Assembly: GCA_964638545.1 (NCBI GenBank)
Contig: CAZXAM010000009.1
Span: 2,935 to 66,934 of the forward strand
Length of the DNA stretch: 64,000 nt
Origin: an uncultured Rikenellaceae bacterium
GTDB lineage: Bacteria > Bacteroidota > Bacteroidia > Bacteroidales > VadinHA17
Reading direction: 5' to 3'
The notes under the pieces are model-generated. The model made no database searches. It saw only the letters and a list, made by a program, of their open reading frames with translations, and was not told the origin of the DNA. Shown here in pieces: positions 10,431-48,367 of the stretch. A program made the position numbers and the translations under genes. Every line of letters starts with the position of its first letter. Within the stretch, counting starts at the first letter, position 1.

Positions 10431-11459
10431 ATGAATAGAAGAGGCTTCGCCAGCGACAATAATGCAGGAGTTCATCCGGAAATTCTGAAGAAACTCGCAG
10501 AAGTGAACCAGGGTCACGTGGTTGGTTATGGTTCAGATATTTACTCTGATCAGGCCAGACAGCTGTTTAAAGATCAGCTCGGTCCTGATGCCGAGGTGTT
10601 CTTCGTATTTACGGGTACTGCGGCCAATGTGCTGAGCATCAGTGCGGTCACCAGGTCGTGGAACTCACTTATAGCTGCAGAAACAGCGCATCTGGAGCAG
10701 GATGAATGTGGCGCTCCGGAAAAATTCACGGGCTGTAAGGTGCTCACTGTTGAAACCCCTGATGGCAAAATAACTCCGGATCTGATAGCCAGGCATATGC
10801 ATGGTTTCGACTTCGAACATCATGCCCAGCCAAAAGTGGTTTCAATAACCCAGTCAACTGAGATGGGAACGGTTTACAATGTGGATGAGATTAGAAAACT
10901 GGCCGACTATTCTCATTCTCTGGGATTATTTCTTCATATGGATGGCGCCAGGATAGCCAATGCAGCTGTTTCTCTTGGACTTCCATTCAGATCCTTCACA
11001 ACTGATGCCGGTGTTGATATTCTTTCTTTTGGAGGGACCAAGAACGGTATGATGATGGGGGAGGCGGTCTGTTTTCTGAAGCCTGGACTGTCGGCAGACT
11101 TTAAATATATCCGGAAGCAGGGCATGCAGCTGGCATCTAAAATGAGATACATTTCTGCTCAGTATATAGCTTATTTCAGGAACGATCTCTGGAAACAATG
11201 TGCATCTCATGCCAATTCTATGGCTTCTGTTCTGGCTGAGAAATTGAAAAGTGTGGAGGGTGTCAGAATAACCCAGAAGGTTGAGTCAAACGGAGTGTTT
11301 GTAATCATACCTGAAATTGTTGCCGCGAAGGTAATGAAGCATTACTTCTTTTATCCATGGAATGAGCAAACCTCTGAATACCGGCTCATGACAAGCTGGG
11401 ACACGACTGTGGAGGATATTGAGGAATTTGTGAAGCTATTAAAGAAGGAATTGAATTAG
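10431..11459 (+). CDS. ltaE: low-specificity L-threonine aldolase (beta-eliminating lyase family)
   Basis: FASDNNAGVHPEIL N-terminus, GTAANV, and the PLP lysine context SFGGTKNG. Confidence 0.8.
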   Translation: MNRRGFASDNNAGVHPEILKKLAEVNQGHVVGYGSDIYSDQARQLFKDQLGPDAEVFFVFTGTAANVLSISAVTRSWNSLIAAETAHLEQDECGAPEKFTGCKVLTVETPDGKITPDLIARHMHGFDFEHHAQPKVVSITQSTEMGTVYNVDEIRKLADYSHSLGLFLHMDGARIANAAVSLGLPFRSFTTDAGVDILSFGGTKNGMMMGEAVCFLKPGLSADFKYIRKQGMQLASKMRYISAQYIAYFRNDLWKQCASHANSMASVLAEKLKSVEGVRITQKVESNGVFVIIPEIVAAKVMKHYFFYPWNEQTSEYRLMTSWDTTVEDIEEFVKLLKKELN

Positions 11460-11460
11460 A

Positions 11461-11563
11461 GGGATTGCTTCGTCGTCACGCCAGGGCGTGACTCCTCGCA
11501 ATGACTGGATACTACATAAGGATTGAGGTCATTGCGAGGAGCGCAGCGACGAAGCAATCCCCC
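11461..11563. repeat. composite palindromic repeat: two inverted copies of the GTCATTGCGAGGA...GACGAAGCAATCCCC element
   Basis: 11461-11505 is the reverse complement of the element family also seen at 11528-11563 and 25989-26033. Confidence 0.8.
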
Positions 11564-11573
11564 TAACAAAACG

Positions 11574-11604
11574 AAAAAGTCCCGATGAATAATCGGGACT
11601 TTTC
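11574..11604. terminator. bidirectional intrinsic terminator between convergent ltaE and tonB
   Basis: AAAA-AGTCCCGAT-gaata-ATCGGGACT-TTTT: a 9-bp stem with an A-run and a T-run on either side. Confidence 0.75.
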
Positions 11605-20106: not shown

Positions 20107-20112
20107 CACCTG

Positions 20113-20449
20113 CAGCAGGTTGTTCCATCGCTCCGCCCTTTGGCGGAGAGGAAAGTCCGGGCAATAAAGAGCACCATCCTTCCTAACTGGAAGATATCCG
20201 CGAGGGTATGGAAGTGTAACAGAAAATAACAGTCCGCCAGCTGGTGGACAACGATGAAAAGGCGAGGTAAGAGCTCACCGGTTCCTGCGGCGACGCAGGA
20301 AGCCGTACACCCGATGGATTGAAAGACCATGTATACCGGCGCAGAGGGCTGCTCGCCCGATGCCGGGGGGTAGGTCGTATGATCGTGTCAGCAATGGCAC
20401 GGCCAGATAAATGATGGAACCCGACAAAACCCGGCTTACAGACCGGCTG
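20113..20449 (+). ncRNA. rnpB: RNase P RNA, bacterial type A
   Basis: Universal P4 strands GAGGAAAGTCCGGGC (20148-) and ACAAAACCCGGCTTACAG (20424-), plus GGTAAGAGCTCACC. The 5' CAGCAGGTTG can pair with the 3' CAGACCGGCTG to form P1. Ends are approximate, within about 5 nt. Confidence 0.9.
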
Positions 20450-20458
20450 AAAATAACG

Positions 20459-25988: not shown

Positions 25989-26033
25989 GTCATTGCGAGG
26001 ATCCCGTTTTAGCGGGAGACGAAGCAATCCCCC
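25989..26033 (+). repeat. single copy of the GTCATTGCGAGGA-[hairpin]-GACGAAGCAATCCCCC element
   Basis: Same arms as 11528-11563, but the core is TCCCG-ttttag-CGGGA. Confidence 0.8.
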
Positions 26034-26059
26034 TCTCACCAGATCGCCCCCTCGCCCCC

Positions 26060-47880: not shown

Positions 47881-47932
47881 TAACTGATAGACAGGGGATC
47901 ATTGCAAGCATATGGTCCCCCTCTTAGAAAAA

Positions 47933-47950
47933 ATGCTCCTTGCGGAGCAT
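47933..47950. terminator. bidirectional terminator (ATGCTCC-ttgc-GGAGCAT)
   Basis: On the reverse strand the hairpin is followed by TTTTTTC, directly after tRNA-Lys. On the forward strand it follows the 46627 gene. Confidence 0.7.
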
Positions 47951-47961
47951 CGTTTGTGTTG

Positions 47962-48034
47962 TGATCTAGCTGGGGCTCGAACCCAGGACCCCATCCTTAA
48001 AAGGGATGTGCTCTACCAACTGAGCTACTAAATC
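47962..48034 (-). tRNA. tRNA-Lys (anticodon UUU)
   Basis: Reverse complement is GATTTAG TA GCTC AGTTGGTA GAGC A CATCC CTTTTAA GGATG GGGTC CTGGG TTCGAGC CCCAG CTAGATC A. It folds as a canonical cloverleaf; CCA is not encoded. Confidence 0.9.
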
Positions 48035-48059
48035 AATATTTCACAATATAAAAGAACTG

Positions 48060-48123
48060 CTGGACCCTTCCGCAAAGCGGAATGCTCTACCTCCCGATAG
48101 CTATCGGGATGAGCTACTAAATC
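48060..48123 (-). pseudogene. tRNA-Lys-derived module 1 (5' acceptor strand, D-arm with 18-nt palindrome insert, non-canonical anticodon hairpin, no T-arm 3' half or acceptor 3' strand)
   Basis: Reverse complement is GATTTAGTAGCTCA[TCCCGATAGCTATCGGGA]GGTAGAGCA TTCCG CTTTG CGGAA GGGTCCAG. Its 5' end is 89 nt from that of the true tRNA. Confidence 0.7.
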
Positions 48124-48148
48124 ATTATTTCACAATAAAAAAGAACCT

Positions 48149-48213
48149 CTGGACCCTTCCGCGAAAGCGGAATGCTCTACCTCCCGATAGCTATCGGGAT
48201 GAGCTACTACTTC
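48149..48213 (-). pseudogene. tRNA-Lys-derived module 2
   Basis: Reverse complement is GAAGTAGTAGCTCA[TCCCGATAGCTATCGGGA]GGTAGAGCA TTCCG CTTTCG CGGAA GGGTCCAG. The spacer (TTCTTTTTTATTGTGAAATAAT) is the same as in front of module 1 and the tRNA. Confidence 0.7.
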
Positions 48214-48235
48214 ATAGCCTATGATTTTGCGGTTG

Positions 48236-48243
48236 CAAAGGTA
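48236..48243 (-). promoter_or_regulatory. candidate -7 box TACCTTTG for the module2-module1-tRNA-Lys unit
   Basis: Plus-strand CAAAGGTA is the reverse complement of TAnnTTTG, about 23 nt upstream of module 2. Confidence 0.5.
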
Positions 48244-48367
48244 TATTAAAAATACTTTTTTCCAAGTATTCAATATTTCTTTTTCTTAACAACTCCGAAA
48301 TTAATCAAAAAATTTCGTAAGCCGGTAAATAGTCCTATTTTCGCACAGAGTGATACACTTATTTTGT

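Follow-up and report, generated by a model that had tools for sequence, protein, structure and literature searches.

The GIY-YIG endonuclease SegB is a free-standing homing endonuclease of the T4 and T6 phage tRNA gene cluster. Its cleavage motif within tRNA genes, RAWTSGAAC, is the sequence of the T-loop, and the enzyme causes tandem amplification that is unstable and depends on recombination (PMC13096335). Type III toxin-antitoxin systems (ToxIN, CptIN and TenpIN) combine a promoter, tandem direct repeats, a Rho-independent terminator and a small nuclease open reading frame (ORF). tRNA genes also serve as integration sites, where a partial copy, in integrase att copies the unchanged tRNA 3' part, lies beside the intact gene. 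Spacers of tRNA precursors can be functional as well, as is the 3' external transcribed spacer (3'ETS) of leuZ, a sponge of small RNAs in E. coli. The locus described here shares traits with each of them. It lies in a window of 64,000 nucleotides (the whole stretch analysed, from contig CAZXAM010000009.1 of an uncultured Rikenellaceae bacterium), in which two tandem units derived from tRNA-Lys(UUU), which we call modules, precede the intact tRNA-Lys(UUU) gene on the minus strand; in related genomes the same locus also carries the gene of a small GIY-YIG nuclease (Table 1), and the window represents the ORF-less state of this composite tRNA-Lys/nuclease locus. Module arrays beside a GIY-YIG gene at a tRNA-Lys locus are an association for which we found no description in the literature covered. 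We think it probable, though only somewhat so, that the modules are recombination products and at the same time partners of a tRNA-Lys-specific nuclease cassette, with SegB-like amplification of the units and selection that keeps them anticodon-less.

The two modules of the window are partial, anticodon-less copies of tRNA-Lys(UUU) and constitute two copies of a recurrent unit that we refer to as M. Each runs from the tRNA 5' acceptor strand through U8-A9, the D-stem, an 18-nt palindrome (TCCCGATAGCTATCGGGA) that substitutes for three D-loop bases, and GGTA-GAGC-A to a short GC-rich hairpin occupying the position of the anticodon arm; the alignment then places GGGTCC, a degenerate T-stem 5' strand with GTTC, a U-run and a common spacer. 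The acceptor 5' strand and the D-stem are common to modules and tRNA-Lys, the acceptor strand of module 1 (GATTTAG) being identical to its tRNA-Lys counterpart, and the loop of the substituted arm has 3-6 nt versus the 7-nt anticodon loop of a full cloverleaf. The T-arm 3' half and the acceptor 3' strand are missing; relatives retain GGGTCCTGGGTTC before TTTT, so that the module break falls inside the T-loop. The initial annotation had listed a -7 box, module 2, module 1, tRNA-Lys and a terminator, and all of them lie on the minus strand where it had put them (Table 2); the shared palindrome, the self-pairing replacement arm, the lost 3' parts and the common spacer were likewise borne out by alignment and pattern counts, as was the origin of the modules from tRNA-Lys with remodelling before duplication. 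The 5' ends of module 2, module 1 and tRNA-Lys (48213, 48123 and 48034) are spaced 90 and 89 nt apart, and the stretch from the promoter box to tRNA-Lys, in which the modules lie, contains no terminator.

No curated RNA family, tRNA included, accommodates the modules. ARAGORN called tRNA-Lys alone (47961-48034), which Rfam matched at full length (RF00005, 69.7 bits), and on the modules Rfam returned no tRNA match at E<=10; searches of Rfam 15 placed no family on them, giving only chance-level matches (S774, 19 bits vs 48; MIR8562, 17 vs 211), so that assignment to a known RNA family, whether at the gathering threshold or at E<=10, was rejected. A covariance model of the module family (R1) scored 68 bits for module 2 and 71.8 bits for module 1 and over the 64 kb detected the two modules and tRNA-Lys, with nothing further. 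The palindrome occurs exactly twice in the window, where 0 occurrences are expected even with 3 mismatches allowed. Could the units be an artifact of assembly or duplication, as the initial annotation had allowed? Modules 1 and 2 are not identical, with 7 differing positions, and many independent assemblies show this design again; thus, they are not an assembly duplicate.

The link to a nuclease comes from the relatives, in which the order of the locus is promoter, M array, tRNA-Lys(UUU), hairpin with U-run, GIY-YIG ORF, tRNA-like tail (t') and terminator. In L027 and L031, for example, a hairpin with a U-run, an 80-aa ORF and the tail come after the tRNA, in this order. The initial annotation had treated promoter, modules, tRNA and terminator as a self-contained unit; the relatives show instead a component of a larger locus. 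The ORF encodes a bare GIY-YIG catalytic domain (Pfam E=2e-17), for which the nearest solved structures are the UPF0213 proteins 1zg2 and 1ywl (E=7e-7), and it matches the UPF0213 proteins in size and in the conserved motifs YVGYT, RR..EHN and a conserved Glu. No tRNA-gene association of these UPF0213/YhbQ-type relatives is described in the literature covered, and a survey of work on GIY-YIG proteins with tRNA, on UPF0213/YhbQ and on type III toxin-antitoxin repeats yielded no link of a UPF0213-type protein to tRNA genes or tRNA-like repeats. The ORF and the tail are interlocked: the stop codon is the TAG of (G)GTAGAGC in a tRNA D-arm, which also encodes the last codons (...GGCTGGTAG followed by AGCA, or ...ATAGCTCAGCAGTAG followed by AGCA in L045), and in the remainder of the tail the same substituted arm precedes a full T-arm and the 3' strand of the acceptor. 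The gene is present in L002, L022, L027, L031, L036, L039/40, L043, L044, L045 and L054, and in L031, L040 and L054 the nuclease and tail unit is itself duplicated. It is under purifying selection, with a ratio of nonsynonymous to synonymous divergence (dN/dS) of 0.05-0.12 at synonymous sites that are at or near saturation (pS 0.63-0.87). Within one genome, modules and tail carry the same arm variant in L022, L027, L031 and L039 but not in L043 and L045, which break a general rule of one arm variant per genome. The sequence TCTCAGCTG upstream of the ORF in L031 was considered as a tRNA 5' exon and rejected, as it is not conserved in other loci.

Is this association a chance feature of a few loci? 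Several hundred homologues of the ORF, of 80-81 aa, were found, and the 5 of 5 that were sampled by protein similarity alone lie in the same locus, their tRNA-Lys being preceded by a module array. Among loci whose sampling took no account of modules, an intact nuclease is accompanied by modules in 7/7 species, whereas species with a decayed or absent nuclease have modules in 0/4 (one-sided Fisher p=0.003, or p=0.010 with the window counted as nuclease-less with modules; since the species are related, the test overstates independence and is indicative only). At one syntenic site the cassette is patchy, being intact in L027 and L031, decayed in L029 and L052, and absent in L032, L048 and the window, where tblastn and a profile search of all six frames found no GIY-YIG ORF. 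The terminator of the window likewise ends the loci of L031, where two nuclease cassettes precede it, and of L032, which has none; it is the ancestral terminator of the locus, and no cassette lies between it and tRNA-Lys.

Table 1 Modules and nuclease gene at the window locus and at loci sampled through the adjacent SDR gene or through the nuclease
Locus	Sampling route	Modules	Nuclease gene
Window		2, with D-loop hairpin	none
L027	SDR (92% identical)	4, without D-loop hairpin	intact
L031	SDR	1	intact, two copies
L029	SDR	0	decayed remnant
L032	SDR	0	none
L048	SDR	0	none
L052	SDR	0	decayed remnant
L036/37	nuclease	9	intact
L039/40	nuclease	at least 2	intact, one or two copies
L043	nuclease	3	intact
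L044	nuclease	3	intact
L045	nuclease	6	intact

The association also extends to a distant lineage. In L054, a contig classed as viral by IMG/VR, a tRNA-Lys(UUU) on a different scaffold (acceptor GGGCGCG) is preceded by at least 3 modules and followed by a terminator, an 85-aa GIY-YIG ORF, a tail, a duplicated terminator and a second, truncated ORF. The ORF is 35% identical to the Bacteroidales nuclease and its stop is the TAG of GGGTAGAGCA; the modules are built on the local tRNA, with arms TCCCGAC/GTCGGGA or TCCCGAT...ATCGGGA, the latter also being the arm of the tail, and one module has a D-loop hairpin of different sequence. Thus, the flanks of M and t' are local tRNA acceptor sequences (GATTCAG, GATTCCG or GGGCGCG), and the arm is common across the lineages, L054 included. 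Pattern scans of viral contigs gave this one contig with the system, a second match (L055) being an ordinary tRNA-Pro, and a protein scan of viral contigs found no carrier. Carriage by phages or plasmids was rejected, their homologues being only ~40% identical and none of them near tRNAs. More distant GIY-YIG homologues (~40-44% identity) stand between disrupted and intact tRNA copies in L008, a Paceibacterota metagenome-assembled genome, and in L013; the disrupted copies carry GC-rich palindromic inserts, and the intact partner is tRNA-Asn, tRNA-Tyr or tRNA-Thr. Since distant homologues adjoin tRNAs while those of phages and plasmids do not, the tRNA link is specific to certain clades.

The arrangement of promoter, tandem repeats, terminator and small nuclease ORF, together with variable repeat number and patchy distribution, resembles that of type III toxin-antitoxin loci, which raises the question of whether the modules are an antitoxin-like RNA. 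Transcribed in excess from a strong tRNA promoter, a module RNA mimicking tRNA-Lys without its anticodon loop would bind the nuclease and hold it inactive, a leaky terminator between tRNA and ORF would set a high ratio of RNA to protein, and loss of the RNA would free the nuclease to attack tRNA-Lys or its gene. We regard this as unlikely, and the same applies to its wider form, in which the modules would be an RNA or DNA antidote to an 80-aa GIY-YIG nuclease targeting tRNA-Lys(UUU) or its gene, a new type of addiction or abortive-infection system; the conserved UCCCGA...UCGGGA hairpin would then be the recognition element of the nuclease, and the window would hold an orphan antidote array or one serving a nuclease encoded elsewhere. 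Such a role would fit the constant company of modules where the nuclease gene is intact, the conserved and covarying hairpins, an arm sequence kept although the nuclease is down to 35% identity, and a nuclease gene that selection strongly preserves yet that is patchy in occurrence, as is usual for addiction and defence modules. It is harder to reconcile with the functional tRNA gene standing between repeats and ORF, with modules that persist without an ORF (the window, L014, L020 and L021), and with a PADLOC search that gave no convincing defence-family match (best E=3e-4 over ~35 residues, among weak partial matches to GIY-YIG-containing candidates). GIY-YIG enzymes are known to act on DNA, and we know of none that binds or cuts RNA. 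The toxins of type III systems have a fold unrelated to that of this ORF and, as endoribonucleases, process repeats of their own that are 36 nt long; the ORF does not belong to the ToxN, CptN or TenpN families, Pfam assigning it to GIY-YIG, and the repeats here are tRNA-derived and 72-118 nt long, with the window having repeats and no ORF.

The modules themselves were traced by complementary routes. The first two scans of the genomic and metagenomic collections used a gapped pattern in which a D-loop insertion was required while the inserted sequence and the arm were left unspecified, so that only the hairpin-bearing form could be found; later sampling by orthologues of the adjacent SDR gene and by nuclease proteins removed this bias. 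With this pattern, eight more Bacteroidales loci (L002, L005, L010, L014, L020, L021, L022 and L024) were found to carry the same module flanked by the same promoter box and tRNA-Lys(UUU); they are syntenic with the window by SDR (70-77% amino-acid identity) and RelA (72-86%); across all related loci SDR identity is 70-92%. In total, 55 module copies (22 distinct) were collected from the syntenic locus of related Bacteroidales, of Solitalea and of a single unrelated lineage. The number per locus, known mostly from short-read assemblies, is 0, 1, 2, 3, 4, 6 or 9, and copies within one array are near-identical save for the D-loop insert in L039.

Comparison of these copies separates a constant from an optional part. 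Among Bacteroidales modules the arm alternates between TTCCG/CGGAA and TCCCG/CGGGA. The D-loop hairpin has an invariant stem, TCCCGAT/ATCGGGA, around a centre that varies (AGCT, AATT, AGTT, AACT, AGCG or AAA), so that palindromy as such is not required; many modules do without the hairpin, and in the L039 array one module has it and the next does not, which indicates that the palindrome is an optional addition. In Solitalea longa (L007), tRNA-Lys genes alternate with a simpler module with a normal D-loop, whose arm TCCCGAT-TT-ATCGGGA has the same stem as the Bacteroidales D-loop hairpin, and L044 has an arm of this Solitalea type. These observations bear on the idea that the palindromes are DNA operators binding a dimeric transcription factor that controls tRNA-Lys or the divergent SDR promoter. 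A perfect 18-bp palindrome found twice, 90 bp apart and near two divergent promoters, would suit an operator in the window. Its centre varies in sequence and length (4 or 3 nt), many modules lack it, it lies downstream of the transcription start and is embedded in a tRNA-derived scaffold, and the same stem takes a different position in L044 and Solitalea; we therefore consider control of this kind very improbable.

The pattern of change within the modules indicates constraint on their stems. When the tRNA was aligned with 19 modules and 6 tails, pairing in the arm helix reached 97%, compared with 47-58% when the partners are slid, and three of its pairs change on both sides in modules and tails (U-A/C-G with a 13:12 split, G-C/A-U and C-G/A-U); RNAalifold independently predicts the same helix. 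Across ten species, variable columns number 0/14 in the D-hairpin stem against 3/4 in its loop, and 2/10 in the arm stem, these two being the covarying pair, against 4/7 in the arm loop region. Within the window, none of the 7 differences between modules 1 and 2 falls in the 32 paired positions (0/7, p=0.04), and only one (1/7, a loop indel) falls within the 56-nt block from TAGCTC to GGGTCC. These data bear out the view of the initial annotation that the modules are maintained and not in random decay, as variation in loops and spacers contrasts with conserved stems and the arm changes are compensatory.

The same data weigh on the possibility that the modules are neutral relics, that is, pseudo-tRNA fragments left by tandem duplication or nuclease-induced repair and conserved by recency and gene conversion. 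Variable copy number, frequent loss and homogeneous arrays would be expected of relics, as would flanks identical to the local tRNA and breakpoints in the D-loop and T-loop, the two most conserved tRNA blocks. Nevertheless, the parts without a donor, the arm and the D-loop hairpin, are the best conserved across species, and synonymous sites of the nuclease are at or near saturation, so the module stems have not drifted as neutral relics over the same time. Flank identity to the local tRNA is maintained, and frequent conversion from that tRNA should have overwritten the substituted arm unless selection preserves it. With compensatory substitutions in the arm and differences between modules 1 and 2 that all avoid paired positions, we consider a neutral origin and persistence rather improbable.

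A further alternative is that the modules act independently of any nuclease as a structured leader or small RNA, for instance as a stable processed RNA, a decoy for RNase P or another RNase, or a platform for tRNA-Lys maturation. In this respect they resemble the 3'ETS of leuZ, in that an RNA left over from a tRNA transcript could be functional in its own right, although they differ from it in being tRNA-derived, repeated and tied to a nuclease gene. Their place inside the tRNA transcription unit, conserved stems with variable loops, retention without the nuclease ORF in the window and in L014, L020 and L021, and the alternation of one module with each tRNA-Lys gene in Solitalea would all be in keeping with such an RNA. 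Set against this, the four close relatives L029, L032, L048 and L052 have the same promoter and tRNA without modules. The homologous loci display no random decay and do display compensatory changes; by the refutation criterion of the initial annotation itself, the absence of modules from several close relatives and the range of 0-9 copies count against an indispensable RNA. A copy number of this range is also hard to square with processing that depends on dosage. The strong nuclease association would be left unexplained, an acceptor helix and T-arm for RNase P recognition are lacking, and the folding energy of single modules is only modestly better than that of shuffled sequence (z -1.2 to -2.1). 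We hold an autonomous RNA to be quite unlikely.

Other structural readings of the modules were discarded. A role of the hairpins as attenuator or terminator is at odds with the ~12 nt that separate either from the following U-run, a region that varies in relatives. A closed tRNA without T-arm, formed by the acceptor 5' strand and the T-stem 5' strand, pairs in L002 and fails in the window, L021 and L022. The minimum free energy fold of the whole leader pairs both palindromes in a long-range 18-bp helix, which follows trivially from self-complementarity and is impossible in single-module loci.

In the reading that we favor, in which recombination and partnership with the nuclease cassette are combined, M combines the 5' part of the local tRNA-Lys with a hairpin specific to the system (TTCCG/CGGAA, TCCCG/CGGGA or TCCCGAT/ATCGGGA) where the anticodon arm would stand, and it would have arisen through recombination of the tRNA-Lys gene with the cassette tail or through template switching between the two. 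The junction fits this origin: the local tRNA 5' part is joined within the shared GGTAGAGCA to the tail arm and ends in the T-loop, and the recurrent breakpoints, D-loop and T-loop, are the most conserved sequence blocks of tRNA genes. The D-loop hairpin may be a copy of the arm inserted through microhomology, as suggested by its stem, which is that of the TCCCGAT/ATCGGGA arm variant, and by similar flanks (CA before and GG after). Arrays would then grow and collapse by unequal recombination, as with phage SegB. In the window, the tRNA promoter would drive transcription of the modules as the leader of pre-tRNA-Lys, from which the RNase P cut at the tRNA 5' end would free them. Extra copies would be kept anticodon-less and stably folded, inert in decoding and offering the nuclease no authentic anticodon-arm site, and they may form a binding sink for a nuclease without a targeting domain of its own. 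As for the window, the nuclease ORF would have been lost or would lie elsewhere in the genome, two older, diverged copies of M persisting.

By analogy, the locus appears to behave like that of a free-standing GIY-YIG endonuclease with SegB-like amplification. A GIY-YIG gene stands among tRNA genes in both, and the head-to-tail, copy-variable repeats adjoining the tRNA-Lys gene are of the kind that SegB produces by recombination (PMC13096335). SegB has truncated gene copies at its repeat junctions, and the modules break inside the T-loop. The differences are also clear. SegB belongs to phages and this locus to a bacterial chromosome; the protein is a bare UPF0213-type domain of 80-85 aa, versus ~220 aa with a DNA-binding domain in SegB; the amplified unit leaves out the functional tRNA; the conserved substituted anticodon arm has no SegB counterpart; and the predicted nuclease is a long-term resident of one locus under purifying selection. 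Two features that define a free-standing GIY-YIG endonuclease locus are lacking: the protein of the relatives is devoid of a DNA-binding domain, and the window does not contain the ORF. Duplication of an integrase att site was rejected: the locus is variable and has partial copies beside an intact tRNA gene, but these are tandem 5' parts with a remodelled arm, the wrong tRNA half, and the gene tables of the window and related loci contain no integrase.

Several points weigh against combining recombination and nuclease partnership in this way, in addition to the relatedness of the species and the short-read origin of the copy numbers noted above. The transcription and processing that it supposes for the modules are ones that we infer. 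The ORFs (80-85 aa) comprise the catalytic domain only, with no DNA-binding or targeting domain attached, and we know of no activity for this GIY-YIG clade. The window has no GIY-YIG ORF, so its link to the nuclease runs through module homology only; no ORF was found within the stretches examined of the module-bearing L014, L020 and L021 either, and the phage and plasmid homologues (~40% identity) do not adjoin tRNA genes. Template-switch correction of quasipalindromes at the DNA level can produce paired changes without an RNA function. Finally, the intact tRNA-Lys beside the cassette keeps its authentic anticodon arm, so that the logic of an 'immune allele' leaves the escape of the host gene from cutting unexplained.

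These results tie one clade of the widespread stand-alone UPF0213/YhbQ-type GIY-YIG proteins to a specific tRNA gene and a remodelled tRNA-like partner, which yields testable hypotheses on the substrate and regulation of the nuclease, and they extend to bacterial chromosomes the phage finding that a GIY-YIG endonuclease reshapes tRNA loci. They also suggest a source of 'pseudo-tRNA' fragments and of tandem arrays that break metagenome assemblies at tRNA loci; in annotation, a cassette should be looked for before such units are called tRNA pseudogenes. If the modules neutralise the nuclease, the design would be one of toxin and antidote by tRNA mimicry.

The remaining features of the window locus are collected in Table 2. 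The sequence TAnnTTTGCA(C/A)(T/C)CGCAAAA precedes modules or tRNA in every related locus, and ACTTG, found 19 nt upstream of the -7 box, is kept in L027, L029 and L031; we take its CTTG to be the -33-like element on the basis of the Bacteroidota promoter consensus. The leader stub keeps its length and A-rich character in relatives. A class A bacterial RNase P RNA gene lies at 20112-20454 (+) of the window (Rfam RF00010, 239 bits, full length) and encodes the ribozyme expected to process pre-tRNA-Lys at the boundary of module and tRNA.

Table 2 Coordinates of the features of the tRNA-Lys locus in the window
Feature	Positions	Strand	Basis or detail
Putative -33-like element (CTTG) of the tRNA promoter	48263..48266	-	inferred
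Bacteroidota-type -7 promoter box TACCTTTG	48236..48243	-	direct reading
Unstructured 22-nt leader stub, promoter to module 2	48214..48235	-	direct reading
Module 2 core: acceptor 5' strand GAAGTAG (diverged), D-stem, D-loop hairpin, substituted arm, GGGTCC	48151..48213	-	
Module 2 D-loop hairpin	48182-48199	-	18-nt palindrome TCCCGATAGCTATCGGGA
Module 2 substituted arm TTCCG-CTTTCG-CGGAA	48157-48172	-	alignment
Module 2 tail/spacer: degenerate T-stem 5' strand and T-loop start (AGAGGTTC), U-run, TATTGTGAAATA	48124..48150	-	
Module 1 core: acceptor 5' strand GATTTAG, D-stem, D-loop hairpin, substituted arm, GGGTCC	48062..48123	-	
Module 1 D-loop hairpin	48092-48109	-	18-nt palindrome TCCCGATAGCTATCGGGA
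Module 1 substituted arm TTCCG-CTTTG-CGGAA	48068-48082	-	alignment
Module 1 tail/spacer: AGCAGTTC, U-run, TATTGTGAAATATT, up to the tRNA 5' end	48035..48061	-	
tRNA-Lys(UUU) gene, functional, CCA not encoded	47962..48034	-	ARAGORN, Rfam
Intrinsic terminator GATGCTCC-GCAA-GGAGCATT with T6	47926..47951	-	terminator scan; hairpin 47951-47932

Further rearrangements were seen at the related loci. In L043-L045 and L052 the whole tRNA-Lys segment, from promoter to cassette, is inverted against the flanking AsnC and SDR genes relative to the window. Repeated and inverted copies of the tRNA 3' end and terminator, such as AGCATCGTTTGTGTTGTAAGATCACC, occur in L031 (1140-1500, minus strand) and upstream in L032/L033; these repeated tRNA 3' ends downstream of the tRNA-Lys locus indicate further rearrangement. 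Downstream of the GIY-YIG ORF in L036/L037 and after the tRNA in L029, the tail is interrupted inside the substituted arm by an insert of ~60-70 nt; with the D-loop cases, this makes the loops of tRNA-like copies recurrent insertion points. In L034/L035 (SDR 80% identical), upstream of the SDR gene, a large hairpin, CGAAAAACAGCAAATC-TTTG-GATTTGCTTTGTTTTTCG, at which the contig ends, interrupts the D-loop of the tRNA-Lys 5' part behind GCTGGT; this is a third type of D-loop disruption at the site. The Solitalea array (L007 1-480; Solitalea longa HR-AV, NZ_PQVF01000012.1) comprises at least 3 modules and 2 tRNA-Lys(UUU) genes and contains one N; it sits at the start of the 8 kb examined, in which no GIY-YIG gene was found. 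Strain HR-AV is a cultivable carrier of modules.

At the distant loci, L008 (6400-7592) has a tRNA-Asn-like 5' fragment with a perfect 20-nt palindrome, CCTGCCTGCCGGCAGGCAGG, followed by the GIY-YIG ORF and an intact tRNA-Asn; the stop of the ORF is U8-A9-G10 of the tRNA, so that RNase P processing would remove the stop codon of the mRNA. In L013 (2700-3900, minus strand), two GIY-YIG ORFs are interleaved with tRNA-Thr, tRNA-Tyr and tRNA-Thr: the first is preceded by a tRNA-Tyr copy that has an insert in the anticodon loop and lacks the T-arm, and after the second comes a tRNA-Thr-like copy whose D-loop and anticodon loop both carry hairpin inserts. In the metagenomic L015, an intact tRNA-Pro (CGG) is preceded by a truncated tRNA-Pro copy whose D-loop contains an insert, and L025 (727-795), in GC-rich DNA, has a full-length tRNA with a D-loop insert of ~25 nt bearing the hairpin GAAGCAATTGCTTC, possibly an archaeal non-canonical intron.

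The initial annotation had also related the module palindrome to hairpins elsewhere in the window. Hairpins of the form TCCCG-N(2-14)-CGGGA number 4, against 0.33 expected, and 2 of them lie outside the modules; the stems at 11580-11598 and 26002-26017 are real, but a functional link to the modules found no support, and the hairpins at 11578 and 26002 were rejected as module relatives because both belong to or adjoin a different small repeat family. The copies of this family lie at 11456-11505 (-), 11528-11566 (+) and 25989-26035 (+), the first two mutually inverted, and their flanks, GTCATTGCGAGGA ... GACGAAGCAATCC(CCCT), enclose a variable GC-rich hairpin (GTCACGCCCTGGCGTGAC, GCGCAGC or TCCCGTTTTAGCGGGA). 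Directly after one of the copies, a terminator-like hairpin at 11575-11603 (+), AAAAGTCCCGAT-GAATA-ATCGGGACTTTT, has the same 7-bp stem as the D-loop hairpin of the modules.

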